Source of the DNA: a virus
Lineage: Monodnaviria > Loebvirae > Hofneiviricota > Faserviricetes > Tubulavirales > Inoviridae
IMG/VR virus record: IMGVR_UViG_2703718850_000001
Reading direction: 5' to 3' (one strand)
Length of the DNA: 8,386 nt
The notes beneath the pieces were generated by a model, which was given only the letters and a program-made list of their open reading frames with translations, did not search any database and was not told the origin of the DNA. Of the stretch, positions 939-8,386 are shown piece after piece. Made by a program: the position numbers and the translations under genes. The first letter of the stretch is position 1. Each line of letters opens with the position of its first letter.

Positions 939-976
939 AATGGTAAGGATGGCGGGAACTGGCGTTACCGGTGCCG

Positions 977-1210
977 TCATTGGTCACAGACCGTAATCCA
1001 CTGGCCCAGGACGTCTTTCAGGCAATGTTGGCATAAATCCAGTTTTAAGCGATTACTGTCACCAAAAATTGAACCGTATCCAGCTAAGTGATTAACAGAC
1101 AGAAACTCATTGAACTCAATGTCATCTACCACCGTCTTCGCATGGCGACCACAGCGATCGCAGGTCTTCGCACATAACATTACAGTATCGCTGGATGTGA
1201 AAAATTGCAT
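977..1210 (-). CDS. Hypothetical 77-aa protein with CxxC...CxxC (putative zinc ribbon)
   Basis: ATG at 1210 with GGAG 6 nt upstream (minus strand), TGA stop at 977-979. Two Cys pairs, CDRC and CQHC, about 40 residues apart. No homologue recognised. Lies between phage gene IV and the dif-like site. Confidence 0.5.
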   Translation of the reverse strand: MQFFTSSDTVMLCAKTCDRCGRHAKTVVDDIEFNEFLSVNHLAGYGSIFGDSNRLKLDLCQHCLKDVLGQWITVCDQ

Positions 1211-1327
1211 TTTATCTCCTCGTAATGCTGCCGCGCCGAATCAGCAATAACGCTAAAAAAACAGAATTGTTCGGCTTGGCCAACCCCTGACACTAACAAA
1301 AGCAAGTTTTGTCACTGTCCGGAGTTA

Positions 1328-1636
1328 TCATATAAACCAATAGACCGTCCTTACGCCATTCTGGTTATCAATAACATAGCCGCATTGTTTCCTTAAAAAT
1401 TCTTCTGCTAAATCAATGGCTTTTACAGAAATCTCATAAGAAGGAAGTAAAGTGTATCCTTTCCCTTCACTGGCAGCTGCTTTGATCGCATCCAGAGTAT
1501 TATCAATCAGTAACAGAGCAAGTGATGCTTCATTTACCTGAGCCGAAGAACTTCTGGCTGCAAGTGTCATTGTTTTTGCTTCTTCCGCTGTAATCGTTCG
1601 TTCTGCCAGAGCAGATAAAATCCCATAAGAATCCAT
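1328..1636 (-). CDS. Hypothetical 102-aa protein (unknown function)
   Basis: ATG at 1636 with a weak GGGG Shine-Dalgarno upstream, TGA stop at 1328-1330. Same strand as the phage genes, directly downstream of gene IV. No homologue recognised. Confidence 0.45.
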   Translation of the reverse strand: MDSYGILSALAERTITAEEAKTMTLAARSSSAQVNEASLALLLIDNTLDAIKAAASEGKGYTLLPSYEISVKAIDLAEEFLRKQCGYVIDNQNGVRTVYWFI

Positions 1637-1657
1637 TAGTTACCCCAATCAATAATG

Positions 1658-1715
1658 TCCATTTGATGGATAGCGAGCAGGGCTCACGCACCTACCCGCT
1701 ATCCATCAAAGTGGA
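1658..1715 (-). other. Long imperfect hairpin overlapping the gene IV stop codon (possible terminator or packaging-signal-like element)
   Basis: 14-bp perfect stem TTTGATGGATAGCG (1662-1675) pairs with CGCTATCCATCAAA (1697-1710), extended to about 18 bp with one bulge; 21-nt loop. Only a weakly T-rich tail follows on the minus strand. Confidence 0.3.
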
Positions 1716-2971
1716 CGAATGATATGTGCTGTAAGCAAAATATACATAATACGCTGTTCATTGCTGTCTGCCTTGCTACTGAAAATCCAGCCTATAAGAG
1801 GAATTTTACTTATAACTGGAACTGAACGCTCGGCATTGCTGAACGATGAATCGATAAGCCCCCCCAATAACAACGTCTGACCATCCTTAATCTGGACTGT
1901 CGTCTGAATCTGGCGCTGATTAGTAATAATATCGGATGCCTGATCATCATTGCTGATTGAATCAGCGCGAGTGTCGATAGTCAGAACTAGTTGCCCGTTA
2001 CCCATGACAACAGGCGTTACCTTGAGAGAAACGCCAACATCATGACGCTCGATAGTCTGAAACGGATTATTTACCCCGGCAGATTCGCCCGTTACCTTTC
2101 CGGTGATAAACGGCACATTCTTACCTACGGAAATGTAACCAGTCTGACCAGACTGAGTAAGAATACGCGGCGTTGAAATCACCTTAGAGCGTGAATTACT
2201 CTGGACAGCACGCAGAGACAGCGCCAACACGTTACCATCAAAAATACCAAAAGAACCGCCCGCCGTAGAAAGAGCGCTACCCAGTGCAGAAGTATTAAAG
2301 CCCCCCGCAACCTTATGACCGGATGCAGAACCTGCCGCAAACGATAAATCAACGCCATCAGACAAGCTGGTTTCAAACATCAGCGACTGAATGAGAACCT
2401 GATCGCGGGCAACATCCACAGAATTGATAAAATCGGACAGAACCGGCAGCAGCTCGTCAGGCGCAGAAACAATCAGCGAGTTATTGCCTGGATAATCCAC
2501 GACATTACCACCACCATTAGAATCAAGATAAATTTTAATCAGTTGCTGAACATCGGACGATCTAACTTTTGTCAGCTTAAAATTTCTGACCGTAAGCGCC
2601 ACAGGTACTGGCTGGTAAGATGGCTCAGAAGGAAAAGTATCATAAGACTGGTTATCAGAATCATCGGAATCCGAAACCATCTGTGAAGGTAATTTAGACG
2701 GCAAAGAGACTACCGCAGGATTGCCAGAAAGCATGACAAAACCGTTAGCATTCAGAACAGACTTAAAGAAATCATCAATATTTGCTGGATTAACATCAGC
2801 ATTAAATACGGTTACGTTTCCTTTAATATCAGGATTAACAATAACAGGCTTGCCAGTTTTTGAAGAATACCACTGAACAAATGAGCGAACAGATGAATTA
2901 TTTAAATTAACAGTTTCAGCAGAAACGCAGAATGAATAGGCAAATAAAAAAGCAACAATAACAGAGCGCAT
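1706..2971 (-). CDS. IV: Filamentous phage pIV secretin (outer-membrane export channel)
   Basis: 421 aa from ATG 2971-2969 (AGGAG 9 nt upstream), signal-peptide-like MRSVIVAFLFAYSFCVSA. Long runs match remembered M13 pIV (e.g. GKNVPFITGKVTGESAGVNNPFQTIER, QTLLLGGL, SKIPLIGW). The ORF-track extension to 3064 is an upstream alternative-start artefact overlapping gene I. Confidence 0.9.
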   Translation of the reverse strand: MRSVIVAFLFAYSFCVSAETVNLNNSSVRSFVQWYSSKTGKPVIVNPDIKGNVTVFNADVNPANIDDFFKSVLNANGFVMLSGNPAVVSLPSKLPSQMVSDSDDSDNQSYDTFPSEPSYQPVPVALTVRNFKLTKVRSSDVQQLIKIYLDSNGGGNVVDYPGNNSLIVSAPDELLPVLSDFINSVDVARDQVLIQSLMFETSLSDGVDLSFAAGSASGHKVAGGFNTSALGSALSTAGGSFGIFDGNVLALSLRAVQSNSRSKVISTPRILTQSGQTGYISVGKNVPFITGKVTGESAGVNNPFQTIERHDVGVSLKVTPVVMGNGQLVLTIDTRADSISNDDQASDIITNQRQIQTTVQIKDGQTLLLGGLIDSSFSNAERSVPVISKIPLIGWIFSSKADSNEQRIMYILLTAHIIRPL

Positions 2972-2978
2972 AATAATA

Positions 2979-3353
2979 TTACTCCTGACAGGTAACAGTC
3001 TGTAAATAACGGCCTTTTCTAATAACAACACGACAGGCATCTTTAATATCAACGGAATAACCATCTTTAATCAAATCAAAATACTGATATTTCATACCTT
3101 TTGCATCAACAAACGTAACGGAAACGTCAAAGCCAAGTTGTGAAAAAGAATTAATAGAAAGTCGGGGTAAGTCACTGGACGAATCAGGCGTTACCGCCCT
3201 CGCCTGTTCAGCATAAGCAGATTTAATAGCTGAGATTTCATCAACATTCTTTCCAGACTGGAGCCAGAAACCAAACGCAAGCCCCAGCGCCAAAAAAGAA
3301 AGCATTAATATAAGACGGTTCGATTTGCGAAAATAAATTTTAGTGAGGCGCAT
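2979..3353 (-). CDS. XI: Putative pXI (in-frame internal start within gene I)
   Basis: In-frame ATG at 3353-3351 is Met241 of pI, the same position as M13 pXI, with GAGGA upstream; the downstream hydrophobic segment matches the pI membrane anchor. Inferred by analogy with Ff only. Confidence 0.4.
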   Translation of the reverse strand: MRLTKIYFRKSNRLILMLSFLALGLAFGFWLQSGKNVDEISAIKSAYAEQARAVTPDSSSDLPRLSINSFSQLGFDVSVTFVDAKGMKYQYFDLIKDGYSVDIKDACRVVIRKGRYLQTVTCQE

Positions 3354-4073
3354 ATAATAATTAAATCCTCTGTGAACAGAAAATTGACCGTGCGTGATAA
3401 ATGGTGGCAAAAGCGAAAATGCGCCATGAGGATAATTATCTGTGAACGCTTGTTTGGTATTGTAAGCAGAATAAAGAGATTTTCCTGTATATATCCATTT
3501 ATCAACAGTGATTGAATTAACATTATCACCATATTTGACAATGCCAAAGTGTACCTTTGGTAAAGAAAATCTCGCCCCTGAAACCAAATTCATAATGGAG
3601 CCAACAAAAGGAATGTTTAATTTATCTGAACGGCGACAATAAACAACATGCTCAGCAAGCGCCAGACGAGCTTGCTTATCCATTATCGAAATATCCTGAA
3701 TCAAAAATATAATATCCCAGCCTAATTTTCTGGCATGTAAAAACCAGTCAATAACAGATTGTCTGTCTTTATCACCCCATGAGCGGGAATTAAACCAAGT
3801 ACCACATTCATCAAGTACAAGGAGGCCATTACGGGATTCATCGTAAGATGTATTCCCAATACCAATAGCAAGTAAATCATTTAATGAAGGCTTGTCAGGA
3901 ATGCGAATAACGCGCGTTTTTTTCGCATAACGCCCAACCATAGGCATATTATGCAATTTAAGATCAAGATTAGTGGCAACAGGACAACCCTTAGCAAGTC
4001 TTTCCTGTATTCTGGAAACACTAACAAGTGTCTTGCCTGAGCCTAATTTGCCTGTTACTACATAAACCGCCAT
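2979..4073 (-). CDS. I: Filamentous phage pI assembly ATPase (Zot-like)
   Basis: 364 aa; N-terminus MAVYVVTGKLGSGKTLVSV (Walker A) and much of the sequence closely match remembered M13 pI (MAVYFVTGKLGSGKTLVSV...LLVLDECGTWFN...HARKLGWDIIFL...). Start ATG 4073-4071 abuts the gene VI stop (TAAATG). Confidence 0.92.
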   Translation of the reverse strand: MAVYVVTGKLGSGKTLVSVSRIQERLAKGCPVATNLDLKLHNMPMVGRYAKKTRVIRIPDKPSLNDLLAIGIGNTSYDESRNGLLVLDECGTWFNSRSWGDKDRQSVIDWFLHARKLGWDIIFLIQDISIMDKQARLALAEHVVYCRRSDKLNIPFVGSIMNLVSGARFSLPKVHFGIVKYGDNVNSITVDKWIYTGKSLYSAYNTKQAFTDNYPHGAFSLLPPFITHGQFSVHRGFNYYMRLTKIYFRKSNRLILMLSFLALGLAFGFWLQSGKNVDEISAIKSAYAEQARAVTPDSSSDLPRLSINSFSQLGFDVSVTFVDAKGMKYQYFDLIKDGYSVDIKDACRVVIRKGRYLQTVTCQE

Positions 4074-4415
4074 TTAAATCACCCTGTTTGCATAATCAAG
4101 AAATTTTTGTTTTAAATCGAAAACAAAAACACTGATACGAGTAACCATAATAACGTTAACACACGCCTGAAAATGGTCAGGCAATACAGACGCCATTAAA
4201 TGGGAGAAATCAGCAGGTAAACCGTTATACATGACCTCAGCAAGGTACTGCATTAAAAGCGTAACAGTTGTTGTAATTAATGCGACCAATGCAAAGGCGA
4301 TTAATCCTGTTCTGGTAGCAAGTCGAGCTAAAAAACTCGCCACATAGCCAATAAACAAAGGGACAAGACCAATAAGAAAACGCAACAATGCAGGAATACC
4401 TAATAATAAAGGCAT
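4074..4415 (-). CDS. VI: Filamentous phage pVI minor coat protein
   Basis: 113 aa from ATG 4415-4413, [14 protein letters not shown] versus M13 pVI MPVLLGIPLLLRF; hydrophobic throughout. AAGGAGGT Shine-Dalgarno upstream. The gene III C-terminal frame stop overlaps this start as TGATG. Confidence 0.8.
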   Translation of the reverse strand: MPLLLGIPALLRFLIGLVPLFIGYVASFLARLATRTGLIAFALVALITTTVTLLMQYLAEVMYNGLPADFSHLMASVLPDHFQACVNVIMVTRISVFVFDLKQKFLDYANRVI

Positions 4416-4833
4416 CACTCACCTCCTTTGCGAAGCAATGAAGTTAAAGAAGTAAAGACATACCAGAACGTAAGGCAATAAAAAACCCATGAAAGAACAT
4501 CTTTAATAGTCAGTAATTTATCGCAACCAATATCAATCTGATAAACCTCTCCGGGAAAAATAATAAAATCAGAGCAGCCGTTACCATTGGGTAAATTAGG
4601 CAGCATAGCACCTTTATTTAAAAATGCTTCCCATAAAGCACCGTGAGAATCCTTTTCAATTCCCAATTCAGAATCAGCCAAAGTAGAAGCGCCATCTAAT
4701 TCAGAGTCGCCCTTTCCATAACGAGAATCACCACCTGAAGGGTCAGCAAAACGGCCAGCCCCCCGCGTAAGATTGTTAATGGAATCGTCAAGACGATTTA
4801 TATTATTCCTGGTTTGTTCATCGGCATTTTTTT
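4415..4833 (-). CDS. III: Gene III g3p C-terminal domain in the -1 frame (frameshifted continuation; pseudogene or slippage product)
   Basis: This frame is open from the A7 tract (plus 4827-4833) to TGA at 4417-4415. It encodes ...[51 protein letters not shown]..., resembling the M13 g3p C-terminal anchor (...ECRPFVFGAGKPYEFSIDCDKINLFRGVFAFLLYVATFMYVFSTF). It has no start of its own; the track's 4681 start is TTG. Confidence 0.7.
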
Positions 4834-5649
4834 ATCATCTGATGAAGTGTCTTTCTCCGTTAATTTATCATGAATATCGCTGGCTATTTTGGGTGAAGCA
4901 CCTTCGATCGCAGACTGAATATCACCTTTAGAAAGACTGGAACCACTAGAGCCACCGCCAGAACTACCGCCACCGGACTCACCACCGCCAGACTCACCAC
5001 CGCCGGACTCACCACCGCCAGACTCACCACCACCATTTTGGGGGGGTGAGGGTTTATCAGAGGGGTCAGCTACAGCACCTGTAGGCTTCCATGTTGCAGC
5101 GCAAACAGTACCATCACCCTGACAAACAATGACACCAGTAGCCTCATATTCACAGCCGTTATAGTAGATATAGCGACCACCATCATATGAATCAACATTA
5201 TTAAACACACCTTCTTCTGGCGGCTTCGCTTCACAAATTTCTTCTGGTGTCGGGTCAGTAGGTTTTTCATCAGGAACAGAACGCTGAATATTACCAACAA
5301 TATAAGCCGTTAAAGACCAATATTTATCCTTCTGCCCTGGTGAATCGCTGTAAGTACAATCACCAGTAAAAACAAGACGGAATTCAGAATCAGGCCAGAT
5401 ACCCTCATAAGTTGGTTTAACCCGAGTAAATACACTCTGAGCACTGGATTTAGCACCCTGACAAGCGGAGGCCTGCATAGCAGCATCAATATAGTAAACC
5501 GTTGTCTTAGAGCCATCCTGATTGGTTATTTGCTTACTTTCAGCGTAGGCAGAACTTTGATAAGTGGATTTAGTAATGCTTTCCCATGACTCAGCATGTG
5601 AAAAAGGAGAAATGAGGACAGCGGAAAGAATTAATATTTTCCTTTTCAT
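4798..5649 (-). CDS. III: Gene III adsorption protein g3p, N-terminal part (signal peptide, receptor domains, Gly-rich linker); reading frame ends early
   Basis: ATG at 5649-5647 gives [19 protein letters not shown] (signal peptide). A TolA-binding-N1-like segment [29 protein letters not shown] resembles M13 DRYANYEGCLWNATGVVVCTGDETQCYGTW, then a (GGGES)n linker. The frame stops at 4800-4798, 11 codons after an A7 run. The ORF-track extension to 5793 overlaps gene VIII in another frame and is not used. Confidence 0.75.
4951..5034 (-). repeat. Tandem 15-bp coding repeats (about 5 units) encoding the g3p [10 protein letters not shown] linker
   Basis: Plus strand shows repeating units of the form accaccgccagactc / accaccgccggactc; minus strand translation [30 protein letters not shown]. 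Confidence 0.8.
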
Positions 5650-5656
5650 AGTAACC

Positions 5657-5690
5657 CGCTTTAATAAAGGGGCAACGAGTGCCCCTGAGT
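5657..5690 (-). terminator. Rho-independent terminator between gene VIII and gene III
   Basis: On the minus strand, a GC-rich 7-bp stem AGGGGCA/TGCCCCT (5668-5674 pairs with 5680-5686) with a 5-nt loop is followed by TTTATTAAAG, directly after the gene VIII stop. Ff phages have a strong terminator at this position. Confidence 0.6.
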
Positions 5691-5695
5691 GAAAT

Positions 5696-5938
5696 TCAAA
5701 CCGCTTTTGAAGAGAATTTTTTGAAAATACGAATGGCAAGCCCAGCGCCAACCACAGCCACAACAACAGGCCATACTTTACCAATGAGATCATTTGCCTG
5801 AGTCAACAAAGCATCCATTGCCTGACCTGCATAATCAGTACCACCTGTAGCGCCTTCAGCCGCAAAAGAACTTGCAGAAATAAAAAGCGCAGTTGAAGCC
5901 AGAGCAACTTTATATTTAACAGTAGACAGAATTTTCAT
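5696..5938 (-). CDS. VIII: Filamentous phage major coat protein pVIII (IKe-like)
   Basis: 80-aa precursor: signal peptide ending SFA, then mature [54 protein letters not shown]. Acidic N-terminus, hydrophobic core and basic tail [12 protein letters not shown] closely match the remembered IKe coat protein (...[25 protein letters not shown]). ATG at 5938 with GGAG upstream. Confidence 0.92.
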
Positions 5939-5957
5939 AGGAATAACTCCATTAAGG

Positions 5958-6053
5958 TTACATTAATCGGTCAGAAAATGATTTAAATGAACCGACCGCA
6001 TAGAAAAGGGCAAAACCAAAGGTATAAGCCCCGAAGAAATAAACGATATACAT
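5958..6053 (-). CDS. IX: Putative pIX minor coat protein
   Basis: 31 aa, MYIVYFFGAYTFGFALFYAVGSFKSFSDRLM; small and hydrophobic, with C-terminal SDRLM resembling the M13 pIX TRLME region. ATG 6053-6051 overlaps the gene VII stop (TAATG). Too short for the ORF track. Confidence 0.6.
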   Translation of the reverse strand: MYIVYFFGAYTFGFALFYAVGSFKSFSDRLM

Positions 6054-6139
6054 TAACGAAAGACCCCCGCAGTAATCGCGCCGAGGCCAAAAGAAATAAC
6101 GATGCCAGACGCTATCAAAATTTGAATAACATCGTCCAT
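6053..6139 (-). CDS. VII: Putative pVII minor coat protein
   Basis: 28 aa, MDDVIQILIASGIVISFGLGAITAGVFR, resembling M13 pVII (...VVLCFALGIIAGGQR). ATG at 6139-6137 lies 2 nt after the gene V stop; TAA at 6055-6053. Confidence 0.6.
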   Translation of the reverse strand: MDDVIQILIASGIVISFGLGAITAGVFR

Positions 6140-6141
6140 AT

Positions 6142-6459
6142 TTAACCTTTGATCTCTGCGATGCCACCATCGGAAGAAACATTATAAGTTACACCTTCCC
6201 TACCCTCCATTGACCACGCACGGACATAGACAGGAATTTGAACTAATTTCCCAATGAAAGCATTCGCCTGGTTCATTAGACCTGCGTTAACGAGAGCCTG
6301 AGAAACTCGAATAATAATTTGATCCTGCTTTGTACCACCAAAACCATCAGGTATTTCAAGGCCAATACCAATTTCATTATAATAGCCCTGACCATTAACT
6401 TTATTACGTTGGCGGGCTCCCAACATTTTACCCTTAACGAAAAGACCATAATTAGACAT
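6142..6459 (-). CDS. Gene V-position protein (putative ssDNA-binding protein, assigned by synteny)
   Basis: 105 aa, ATG at 6459 with AAGGAAAG upstream, between gene II and gene VII exactly where Ff gene V sits. I do not recognise similarity to M13 or IKe gVp, so the function is inferred from position only. Confidence 0.45.
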   Translation of the reverse strand: MSNYGLFVKGKMLGARQRNKVNGQGYYNEIGIGLEIPDGFGGTKQDQIIIRVSQALVNAGLMNQANAFIGKLVQIPVYVRAWSMEGREGVTYNVSSDGGIAEIKG

Positions 6460-6470
6460 ATTACTTTCCT

Positions 6471-6785
6471 TTAATGCCAGCTACTGGCGTGCGAAATACG
6501 GTTGTAATCGAAAATAAAACCTTTCTCATAAATCCATAAGGGGATTTCCGCTGGCTTGGCTTCCAGCGTTCTTATTAGCGGAACAACGTTATTAGAGTCT
6601 GGTGAATCACAATAGAAATTAATATCGATACCGAACGAAAGCAATTCTCTTCTATGGCGATAAAAAGTGTTATGAGGTAACATTTCTTTCATGTTAGCCC
6701 CTTGTTTCCAAAGTAAATAAGTTGACTGTATTTTTCTTGGCAGTTTCGTTATTTTTTCATCACTTAAAATAGCATTCTGATTCAT
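6471..6785 (-). CDS. X: Putative pX (in-frame internal start within gene II)
   Basis: In-frame ATG at 6785-6783 with GGGAG 8 nt upstream; product MNQNAILSDEK... (104 aa) aligns with the start of M13 pX (MNIYDDSAVLDA...). Inferred by analogy with Ff. Confidence 0.4.
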   Translation of the reverse strand: MNQNAILSDEKITKLPRKIQSTYLLWKQGANMKEMLPHNTFYRHRRELLSFGIDINFYCDSPDSNNVVPLIRTLEAKPAEIPLWIYEKGFIFDYNRISHASSWH

Positions 6786-7565
6786 TTCTATTCTCCCTAC
6801 ATATTCAGAGAATAATTGACGTGGTGTTTTCATATTCCAGTTAGCGCCAAGCGTTAAATTTAAATCAATAAGCTCAGTTGTTCTTAATGTTAATTCAATA
6901 CGTAATTTATCTTTCGTCCAGTCCAGTAACCCGGCTCGTACAAACTCTTCGGCTATCTGGTGCCCTTTTTTACCAGAAACGTGTTCATCATATTTTGAAT
7001 AAAATTTCAGACTCCATCGACGGGAGTTTTTACCTAAATAAACTGTACCGCCTTTCCCACATGCGCGACCATGGCGTGTTTTAGCTTTAAATTCGGCGGC
7101 ATAAAGCCATGATCTGACATTTTCCAGCGTAGATAATGAATACATGTAATTAATGTCAACACGTGAAATTTTATACTGACCTGCCATAACGGCTTTATAA
7201 GACGCTAAATCATGAGGAATATTCAATAAGGATAAAATCCTGGCATAGACCGTCAACATGAGCCCTTGTATATCATCCGACCCAACAACAGAATGCCCCT
7301 GCAGAAACTTGGAAGGATTACCATCAATGTACAAATGTGTCGCTTTACCTTCGCCATTAGATCCTATCGATCGTACTTTCATCGTTGCTTCATGCGAGCC
7401 GCGAACAGTCAGTCGCTTAACGGTTTCCCACTCAATTGCACCGTCAGCATCAACGCTGACAACACTCCCCGCCGGAAGCGGTTTGTGTGTGCAAGGGAAA
7501 ATCCCGGTAAGCCAATCGATCACGAATAAATCCTCAAAATTGCAAAAATGACGACTTACTAACAC
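6471..7565 (-). CDS. II: Rolling-circle replication initiator pII (gene II); start uncertain
   Basis: Matches remembered M13 pII at NPSKFLQGHSVVG (M13 PAKVLQGHNVFG) and SNNVVPLIR (M13 CNNVVPLVR). The track start at 7565 is GTG; a better-supported start is GTG 7520-7518, preceded by GAGGA, giving about 349 aa. Shorter than M13 pII (410 aa). Confidence 0.85.
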   Translation of the reverse strand: MLVSRHFCNFEDLFVIDWLTGIFPCTHKPLPAGSVVSVDADGAIEWETVKRLTVRGSHEATMKVRSIGSNGEGKATHLYIDGNPSKFLQGHSVVGSDDIQGLMLTVYARILSLLNIPHDLASYKAVMAGQYKISRVDINYMYSLSTLENVRSWLYAAEFKAKTRHGRACGKGGTVYLGKNSRRWSLKFYSKYDEHVSGKKGHQIAEEFVRAGLLDWTKDKLRIELTLRTTELIDLNLTLGANWNMKTPRQLFSEYVGRIEMNQNAILSDEKITKLPRKIQSTYLLWKQGANMKEMLPHNTFYRHRRELLSFGIDINFYCDSPDSNNVVPLIRTLEAKPAEIPLWIYEKGFIFDYNRISHASSWH

Positions 7566-7692
7566 ATGAGTTCAGTAGTTCATTAGTGTTTTAACATTAC
7601 ACCAGTGAGCTAGTGAGTTCAAGAGGCTTGGATGATATGAGTTCATGAGCATGTATACTCACTTCAAATATTGCATTGAACGAGCGTAAAAA
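7566..7692. promoter_or_regulatory. Divergent intergenic control region with repeated TGAGTTCA motifs (candidate operator or origin repeats and promoters)
   Basis: ATGAGTTCA at 7566-7574 and 7637-7645, GTGAGTTCA at 7613-7621, plus partial copies (TAGTTCA 7576-7582, AGTGAGC 7604-7610). Candidate minus-strand promoter for gene II: TTGAAC (plus 7617-7622), 17-bp spacer, TAATGT (plus 7594-7599). Candidate plus-strand -10 TATACT at 7654-7659 for the regulator gene. Confidence 0.4.
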
Positions 7693-7875
7693 ATGGCAAA
7701 GCGCACGACTTATAACGTGACGGAAGAAAGAAAAATGAAACTAGAACGACTGGCTATAAATGCCAGTGTAAAACTAGGAAAAACAATTACATGGACAGAG
7801 ATTTTAGGTTATCTGATTGATAACTACTCTAAAGATGCAGCAGAAGATCTCATGTCTGCCAAACAAAAGGATTAA
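7693..7875 (+). CDS. Ribbon-helix-helix (CopG/Arc-like) transcriptional regulator, candidate phage repressor
   Basis: 60 aa, MAKRTTYNVTEERKMKLERLAINASVKLGKTITWTEILGYLIDNYSKD. The pattern (basic N-terminal strand, then two helices) matches the remembered CopG fold (MKKRLTITLSESVLENLEKMAREMGLSKSAMISVALENYKK). Divergently transcribed from gene II, like rstR relative to rstA in CTXphi. Confidence 0.55.
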   Translation: MAKRTTYNVTEERKMKLERLAINASVKLGKTITWTEILGYLIDNYSKDAAEDLMSAKQKD

Positions 7876-7893
7876 GTACCACGAATGGTACAA

Positions 7894-7930
7894 ACGTGCA
7901 GTATTACCAACACTGCACGTTCTTTATTGT
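7894..7930 (+). terminator. Rho-independent terminator downstream of the RHH gene
   Basis: 9-bp stem ACGTGCAGT (7894-7902) pairs with ACTGCACGT (7912-7920), 9-nt loop, followed by TCTTTATTGTG. Confidence 0.5.
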
Positions 7931-7963
7931 GCGAATTTTGAACAGTGAAAAAGGATCAAAAGG

Positions 7964-8386
7964 ATGAGTAGAAATAACGAAACAAGCGGCGTTGAACTGG
8001 TTGTCGTCGGCGTATTTGCTTTCTGTCTGGCAGTTGTTGCCTGGCTAATGAAAACTTTCGATGTTGAATGGCAAACAGCACTGGAAACTGCGCCTGGCCT
8101 GGTAGTCTGGTTGCTTGCTGTCGGAGCGGGGATCTTTTTCGGGATCAAAATGGAAACAGGTCTTGTTCGCTGGGGTGCTCCACTGGCGATCGCCCTTCTG
8201 ATTCCGGTATTCAAACCAATTCTTAAGGAAGCTGCCGGAGTACGTGAAATGGGTGGGTTGGTTTTCGATGATATGGTTTCGTGGTACGGAACTGGCTGGG
8301 GAATGTCGTTGATGTTTTTCGGAATTCTTATCATTGGATACGGACTTCTTTATTGGTGGCACAGAAGAAACTCATATTACTGGTAA
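7964..8386 (+). CDS. Small integral membrane protein (about 4 predicted TM segments), unknown function
   Basis: 140 aa; ATG at 7964 preceded by AAAGG/AAGGA; hydrophobic stretches VVVGVFAFCLAVVAWLM, LVVWLLAVGAGIFFGI, APLAIALLIPVF, MSLMFFGILIIGYGLLYWW. Stop TAA is the last three bases of the window. Preferred over the overlapping minus-strand ORF 7924-8334, which is Pro/Thr/Ser-rich and low in complexity. Confidence 0.5.
   Translation: MSRNNETSGVELVVVGVFAFCLAVVAWLMKTFDVEWQTALETAPGLVVWLLAVGAGIFFGIKMETGLVRWGAPLAIALLIPVFKPILKEAAGVREMGGLVFDDMVSWYGTGWGMSLMFFGILIIGYGLLYWWHRRNSYYW

Follow-up and report, generated by a model that had tools for sequence, protein, structure and literature searches.

Filamentous prophages of the UPφ group

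In filamentous phages of the Ff/IKe type, the C-domain of the gene III protein (pIII, or g3p) is built into the virion tip and is needed for filament termination and release. The g3p of IKe and I2-2 (Lineavirus; PDB 4eo0 and 4eo1) presents, in this order, a signal peptide, a pilus-binding domain, a TolA-binding domain, a Gly-rich linker and a C-domain with a membrane anchor, and both phages are non-integrating and preserve an intact gene III. UPφ901 and its relatives constitute a published group of IKe/I2-2-like phages that integrate at dif via XerCD (Shapiro & Putonti 2020, Virus Evol, PMC7307601). Their core genes follow the order II-V-VII/IX-VIII-III-VI-I-IV, together with two additional small ORFs and a cargo slot in reverse orientation, their prophages are placed beside hipBA at dif, often in tandem, and their g3p varies chiefly in a GGGES linker. 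Just one member with an early stop in gene III, GCA_001519645, is mentioned in that paper, and its authors proposed that this member was complemented by another inovirus.

Judged by its gene content and its nearest matches, the stretch of DNA analyzed here (the window, 8,386 nt) holds a UPφ-type filamentous prophage, IKe/I2-2-like and integrated at dif. The ORF map and similarity searches placed this prophage at positions ~940-8386 of the minus strand, with gene II at 7565-6471, gene V at 6459-6142, gene VIII at 5938-5696, gene III at 5649-4415, gene VI at 4418-4074, gene I with its Zot domain at 4073-2979, the secretin gene IV at ~3064-1706, and two small conserved ORFs at 1636-1328 and 1210-977, while two ORFs were found on the plus strand (7693-7875 and 7964-8386). 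As in UPφ, the core genes II, V, VII/IX, VIII, III, VI, I and IV occur in the Ff/IKe order, and the window has the two extra small ORFs and the reverse-oriented cargo slot too. The lengths of its ORFs agree with those of annotated UPφ-type relatives, and the Pfam families Phage_CRI, G5P, G7P_2, coatGP8, G3P, DUF5455, Zot and Secretin were assigned to identical neighbours. E. coli prophages with UPφ-type genes annotated were 99.0-99.4% identical over 89% of the window and adjoin hipBA in many E. coli chromosomes, frequently in tandem; prophages in genomes named by PMC7307601, such as ECONIH2, reached 98-99% nucleotide identity, and IKe, I2-2 and Erwinia PEar about 70%. The relatives and the loci that share the gene III allele of the window directly follow hipBA. 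At the phage end, a dif-like site was recognized at 910-938, with 11 of 11 positions matching in the XerC arm of what we take to be the E. coli dif consensus. The window departs from UPφ in its gene III, which is broken by a 1-nt deletion.

Gene III is divided between two reading frames

Translation of 5649-4415 of the minus strand in three frames revealed that the zero frame runs from MKRK to SSDDKK, continues through nine out-of-frame residues (MPMNKPGII) and ends at a TAA at 4798-4800, for a total of 283 aa (4798-5649, minus strand), a product that is on record in exactly this form in other assemblies. The –1 frame relative to it is closed by consecutive TGA and TAA codons at 4837-4832 and is then open for 138 codons, from KNADEQ at 4831 to LLRKGGE and a TGA at 4415-4417 (4415-4831, minus strand), which overlaps the gene VI start by one base, likewise in relatives. 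The sole homopolymer at the break is the plus-strand T7 at 4827-4833, that is, the A7 run of the coding strand, where relatives have A8 and the window has lost one nucleotide; the zero-frame TAA lies nine codons past this run. The initial annotation had described a g3p gene split by a –1 frame change, in which one extra A would restore about 411 aa, and the translation bore this out, since the insertion of one A yielded a continuous protein of exactly 411 aa. It had also listed an A7 run and a T7 run at the break; both are present, although they are the same run read on two strands and not two features.

The identity of the gene as g3p was confirmed by PDB and Pfam matches and by alignment with IKe, I2-2 and PEar1. 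The signal peptide (5593-5649) was delimited by alignment with the annotated one of IKe g3p, its cleavage position following from that alignment. It is followed by the pilus-binding domain at 5266-5592 (residues 20-128; PDB 4eo0, IKe g3p, E=1.2e-25), in which the Pfam family G3P_pilus-bind (PF21443) spans residues 22-125 with E=8.5e-25, and by the TolA-binding domain at 5065-5262 (residues 130-195; PDB 4eo1, IKe g3p, E=3.6e-25, and f1/fd N1 structures), in which Phage_Coat_A (PF05357) spans residues 135-176 with E=8e-6, both families scoring above their gathering cut-offs. The Gly-rich linker lies at 4936-5040, and its repeat number is variable among relatives, in which g3p measures 401-430 aa chiefly owing to this repeat (also reported in PMC7307601). 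The 283-aa product thus comprises the signal peptide, both binding domains, the linker, about 35 post-linker residues and the nine out-of-frame ones, and the frame is interrupted after K274, where the C-domain begins. The hydrophobic C-terminal membrane anchor, aligned with those of IKe and f1, corresponds to residues 385-406 of the repaired protein (4433-4498) and is absent from the truncated product.

Several comparisons indicate, beyond chance level, that both halves are one gene. In the f1 virion-tip structure 8b3o, the pIII linker and C-domain aligned with residues 196-408 of the repaired protein, the two fragments matched the same protein family, phrog_4150, at positions 1-294 and 343-430, respectively, and the repaired g3p was colinear from its first to its last residue with the g3p of IKe, I2-2 and PEar1. 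The order of domains is that of IKe and I2-2, with signal peptide, pilus-binding and TolA-binding domains all in place, but the C-domain and its anchor lie in the –1 frame relative to the N-terminal domains. As encoded, gene III is consequently best read as a frameshifted pseudogene of the IKe-type g3p family.

Length of the A-run among relatives

The comparison of homopolymer length in related prophages, suggested by the initial annotation, established that UPφ relatives normally have A8 and an intact gene. In the three nearest relatives with complete genomes, the run is A8 and the attachment protein, at 410-430 aa, is annotated as intact. When 101 nt spanning the run were used as a query, 48 complete E. 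coli genomes gave matches, in 47 of them over 102 bases, corresponding to A8; the sole 101-base match, at 100% identity, was EC5502, a genome with 15 UPφ copies, most of whose genes are annotated as 'frameshifted', and of the five copies read there, one has A7 and four have A8. The A7 of EC5502 was discounted, as it belongs to a 15-copy array full of annotated frameshifts, in an assembly unreliable at homopolymers. Moreover, a scan of GTDB representative genomes, IMG/VR and JGI metagenomes for A6-A10 patterns returned 20 further loci, all with A8 and an open frame to the terminal LLRKGGE except two, one with A9 (L010) and one with A8 whose frame ends early (L014). The scanned copies had A8 in 26 of 28 cases, A9 in one and A7 in one. 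The A9 of L010 was not accepted as an independent second event, because this locus presents 18 gap openings in 10 kb against its nearest relative, so that both non-A8 exceptions, EC5502 and L010, sit in indel-rich assemblies.

In more distant relatives, alignment revealed no A-run at the equivalent g3p site of IKe, I2-2 or PEar1: the equivalent codons read CAG AAG AAA GCA in IKe and I2-2 and CAA AAG GAA GCT in PEar1, and the frames of all three are continuous. Because close relatives have A8 and an open frame, and distant ones have a continuous frame and no A-run, the single-frame gene III is ancestral and A7 is derived from it by the loss of one base. The A8 tract itself is a clade-specific accident of codon choice for Lys-Lys-Asn (AAA AAA AAT).

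The A-run was also considered as a recurrent special hotspot, and this was rejected. In 124 blocks of the protein collection, the 88-aa C-terminal ORF is annotated as a gene of its own, and in the ten of these loci that were read the causes were varied, including N-gaps in the Gly linker and frameshifts at a C-run (window 5040-5046) or at a G6 run (4759-4764); a break at the A-run was found only in the lineage of the window and in one copy of a long-read assembly.

Recurrence of the A7 allele

The exact 283-aa product was found on six contigs, with three NCBI protein accessions; as an exact-identity look-up retrieves the same haplotype only, this recurrence reflects a shared allele and not independent origins. 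At the nucleotide level, A7 was present in at least three other independent assemblies besides the window, and every fetched copy read A7: GCA_900480535.1 (L025), GCA_958312155.1 (L026 and L027, two tandem copies, both A7) and the Logan assembly of run ERR1100463 (L028). The last of these agrees with the window at 100% identity across 7,462 nt, corresponding to the phage part only, on a contig common to three samples; none of the fetched loci reproduces the whole window letter for letter. Over 7,264 nt of host flank, L025 and L026 do not differ, and the A7 carriers therefore belong to a single E. coli lineage; in that flank, NCTC9104, an A8 strain, is 99.94% identical. Moreover, the exact repaired 411-aa protein is on record in another E. 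coli (P0001), and the intact parental haplotype is therefore extant.

Within this lineage, L026 has the ancestral bases at positions 7909, 4424 and 3758, where the window, L025 and L028 have derived ones. Since L026 combines A7 with these ancestral bases, the A7 deletion appears to be older than the three substitutions, provided that the A7 calls are correct in both sublineages. In gene I, both copies in L026 are also one A short in an A-run that is intact in the window (3917-3923), and this second deletion is what further decay of a morphogenesis module no longer under selection would resemble.

Origin of the frame change

Three explanations had been offered in the initial annotation, namely an inactivating mutation, a sequencing error, and programmed slippage or phase variation, and the evidence favours the inactivating one: gene III was probably made a pseudogene by a real 1-nt deletion that has been vertically inherited in one E. 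coli lineage, as A7 and the identical truncated product recur in several independent assemblies of that lineage. This same recurrence makes an error confined to the assembly of the window unlikely. As for a broader miscall, in which the true sequence would be A8 and gene III intact, homopolymer miscalls are common, the other non-A8 copies come from the error-rich assemblies EC5502 and L010, many public contigs have g3p split at other homopolymers or at N-gaps, and the exact repaired protein exists in P0001. In addition, GCA_958312155.1 resolves tandem copies of 7.9 kb and was thus probably obtained from long reads, which systematically undercall homopolymers. Nevertheless, the missing A is the sole indel private to the window in its phage genes outside the Gly-linker repeat, in comparison with three relatives, against which all other phage genes of the window are at full annotated length, so that the source assembly is not one rich in homopolymer errors. 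A7 was also reproduced in assemblies deposited separately, among them a Logan assembly at run level that matches the window at 100% identity, and in two sublineages distinguishable by SNPs; recurrence of this kind would not be produced by a random error, and a systematic one should have affected other A7, C7 or G7 runs as well, where none was seen. Taken as a whole, such a miscall is rather unlikely.

If the deletion is real, the A-run could still be functional, either as a site of programmed –1 ribosomal frameshifting or transcriptional slippage that yields truncated and full-length g3p by design, or as a contingency locus at which slipped-strand changes reversibly switch virion completion off (A7 or A9) and on (A8), with a periplasmic receptor-binding fragment that might be useful while completion is off. 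A –1 slip of tRNA-Lys on the second AAA, at the in-phase A_AA.A tetramer, would restore exactly the wild-type KKNADE, and the zero-frame stop follows close behind the run, at nine codons. Nonetheless, the in-phase heptamer is the non-canonical U_AAA_AAA; no canonical X_XXY_YYZ heptamer was found in phase, the zero frame reading GAU GAU AAA AAA AUG, with A_AA.A as the only tetramer in phase. No stimulatory RNA structure was detected in the 101 nt downstream, where the minimum free energy (–20.3) was less stable than the shuffle mean (–23.2; z = +1.04), and the nearest GGAG, about 21 nt upstream of the run, is judged too distant for stimulation of the Shine-Dalgarno type. Thus, the site has neither the stem-loop, pseudoknot or properly spaced Shine-Dalgarno-like element of dnaX or IS3-IS911 type sites nor a two-frame arrangement conserved in homologues, as all relatives are single-frame, an observation that by the reckoning of the initial annotation itself leaves no case for programmed slippage. 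Published efficiencies point the same way, since tetramers with no stimulator gave about 0.15% frameshifting against a background of 0.11% in E. coli (PMC4066793), and reporter assays with E. coli RNA polymerase detected no rescue on runs of fewer than eight A's (PMC6260861). Programmed frameshifting was rejected on these grounds of phase, structure, conservation and efficiency, and recoding by design at this run is extremely improbable. As for switching, A7 and an exactly matching A8 haplotype are both present in E. coli, the tract sits precisely between the receptor-binding and assembly halves of g3p, and indels in 8A repeats are readily generated in E. coli, where they are partly bypassed (PMC3812077). 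Contingency loci are polymorphic within and between close strains, with both states recurrent, but only one credible non-A8 lineage was found among more than 70 copies examined, all other good-quality copies being A8, and A7 is fixed within that lineage, in both tandem copies of L026, in L025, in L028 and in the window, where a switching locus would show a mixture. Moreover, the tract is absent from IKe, I2-2 and PEar1, the second inactivating deletion, in gene I of one strain, fits decay and not regulation, and eight A's are short for a high-rate switch in a mismatch-repair-proficient host. Slipped-strand switching is accordingly held to be very unlikely, and no sign of selection maintaining the frameshifted state was found among the features examined.

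Expected consequences of the deletion

According to the favoured reading, one A would have been lost from the ancestral in-frame A8, replication slippage at the homopolymer being the obvious source of this presumed step, and the deletion would then have passed down vertically within one E. coli lineage. Translation would now stop nine codons past the run, and the predicted 283-aa product would retain both receptor-binding domains as well as the signal peptide and linker, but residues 275-411, nearly all of the C-domain with its membrane anchor, would be missing. The C-domain of Ff phages joins the virion tip and terminates and releases the filament, and its loss is the classical defect that blocks both steps. 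The segment missing here aligns to this same domain in the f1 tip structure 8b3o, so that the allele resembles the gene III C-domain deletions and amber mutants of f1, M13 and fd, with the difference that those are laboratory mutants and this one is a natural prophage allele known from its sequence. Because the C-domain of pIII is needed for filament termination and release, no free infectious particles are expected, and this prophage copy alone should be unable to terminate and release infectious virions, by analogy with Ff genetics. At most, cell-attached filaments would be formed, unless another inovirus supplies g3p, as was proposed for the UPφ member with an early stop (PMC7307601); an intact helper copy of gene III may be present elsewhere in the source genome, of which the window covers 8.4 kb.

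Export to the periplasm would still be expected for the unanchored receptor-binding fragment, whose binding to TolA or to pili is a matter of speculation. A more elaborate proposal regards the A8 at the domain boundary of g3p as a mutational switch and the A7 lineage as a domesticated OFF state kept by selection: the loss of one A could stop virion completion and relieve the host of chronic phage secretion, the exported fragment, unanchored and able to bind pili and TolA, could block superinfection by related filamentous phages, and a transmissible phage could be regained through rare slippage or a return to A8. We consider this combination highly improbable; should the fragment prove protective against related phages, it would be a modest example of prophage domestication.

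Two routes to the C-domain from the A7 allele were also considered. Because a –1 slip on the second AAA regenerates the exact wild-type sequence, it is conceivable that ribosomal or transcriptional slippage on A7 supplies trace full-length g3p, at background level only and not by design. In this respect, the locus resembles the homopolymer frameshift pseudogenes of bacteria, in which a single-base indel in an A/T run leaves low-level bypass possible in principle (PMC3812077; PMC6260861) and of which 8A-repeat indels can be bypassed at some level in E. coli (PMC3812077), but it differs in that at A7 the published data on E. coli RNA polymerase reveal no detectable rescue. Expression of the C-domain alone was judged unlikely upon sequence inspection, since a TTG at 4681, preceded by no visible Shine-Dalgarno sequence, is the earliest candidate start, and the product would have no signal peptide.

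The feature is thus a frameshift pseudogene of an ordinary kind, within a prophage family that is already known; an early stop in gene III of UPφ is on record (PMC7307601). The split gene III is better annotated as a frameshifted pseudogene than as two genes or a recoding site. It marks one E. coli lineage with a UPφ prophage that is probably no longer self-transmissible, and it illustrates how often public assemblies have the g3p of the UPφ family broken at homopolymers, whether truly or by sequencing error.

A gokushovirus prophage end at the same dif site

Positions 1-893, at the left end of the window, belong not to the inovirus but to a gokushovirus (Microviridae) prophage, of which they are the end, encoding a DNA pilot protein and a small Arg-rich protein; between them and the UPφ prophage lies the dif-like site at 910-938. 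The same context, UPφ followed by gokushovirus, occurs in L025 together with an extra partial duplication, and there the remaining gokushovirus genes can be seen, coding for the capsid protein F, the scaffold and Rep. Two unrelated ssDNA phages are therefore stacked at one dif locus, the UPφ prophage abutting a gokushovirus prophage and not another UPφ or a Ypfφ copy. A term search of the UPφ paper (PMC7307601) and of the enterobacterial gokushovirus paper returned no mention of such inovirus-gokushovirus stacking, and this adjacent gokushovirus end at the same dif site is more unusual than the gene III frameshift.

Further breaks and length variation in gene III

The disruption of g3p, the gene III attachment protein, was not confined to a single homopolymer. 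In public assemblies of the UPφ family (L031-L038), the gene was also split at a C-run preceding the linker (window 5040-5046) and, inside the C-domain, at a G6 run (window 4759-4764); additional apparent splits derived from N-gaps within the Gly-rich linker. These breaks are probably sequencing errors in part and real in part. The linker repeat itself (window 4936-5040) differed in copy number between otherwise near-identical relatives, resulting in g3p proteins of 401-430 aa; such variation had already been noted for UPφ (PMC7307601) and, by earlier work, for IKe. Among the PHROG profiles matched by the two gene III segments of the window (4798-5649 and 4415-4681), phrog_8516 (231 positions) covers only the N-terminal half of g3p and phrog_10990 (200 positions) only the C-terminal half, and both look like families assembled from gene III calls that were split or incomplete.

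E. coli EC5502 (NZ_CP092647.1), the sole complete genome with A7 at the gene III site, carried a tandem array of 15 UPφ copies at 4.93-4.98 Mb. Across most of these copies, the majority of genes were annotated with frameshifts; this genome looks like an unpolished long-read assembly. Another UPφ prophage, with A8, was found in a 25-kb contig (JARKOR010000214.1) assigned to a 'Candidatus Nanosynbacter' MAG, very likely a mis-binned enterobacterial contig.

A second deletion, in gene I

Both tandem UPφ copies of GCA_958312155.1 combined the A7 of gene III with a 1-nt deletion in gene I, which encodes a Zot domain; there, an A7 run is shortened to A6, and the gene is split into ORFs of 63 and 234 aa. 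The window counterpart of this run, T7 at 3917-3923, was intact. This second deletion fits a lineage bearing A7 whose morphogenesis genes are still decaying.

Neighboring elements

At its left end (within 1-938), the window carried the terminal part of a gokushovirus (Microviridae) prophage, with 99.5% identity to E. coli C5, comprising a DNA pilot protein (1-771; phrog_8693) and an Arg-rich protein of 39 aa (774-893). The boundary with the UPφ inovirus was a dif-like site at 910-938, whose minus strand reads GGTGCGCATAA-TGTAAAG-TTATGTCAAAA. The remaining gokushovirus genes, coding for capsid protein F, scaffold and Rep, were visible in the related locus L025 of GCA_900480535.1 (15716-20124 of that locus). 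Therefore, one dif locus holds two unrelated ssDNA phages, stacked side by side. A term search for 'gokushovir' in the UPφ paper and one for 'filamentous' in the gokushovirus paper brought up no mention of this stacking.

Past window position 8386, adjoining a 140-aa ORF, the UPφ phages harbor a reverse-oriented cargo slot whose content varied among near-identical phages (L001-L003 and L025-L027, the closest complete-genome relatives and members of the A7-bearing lineage, respectively). The slot held an AbiJ-like STM4504/CBY_0614 protein, a Fic protein, an ECs_2282 zinc-binding protein or a 369-aa hypothetical protein. These genes are possibly defence or toxin cargo swapped among UPφ copies.
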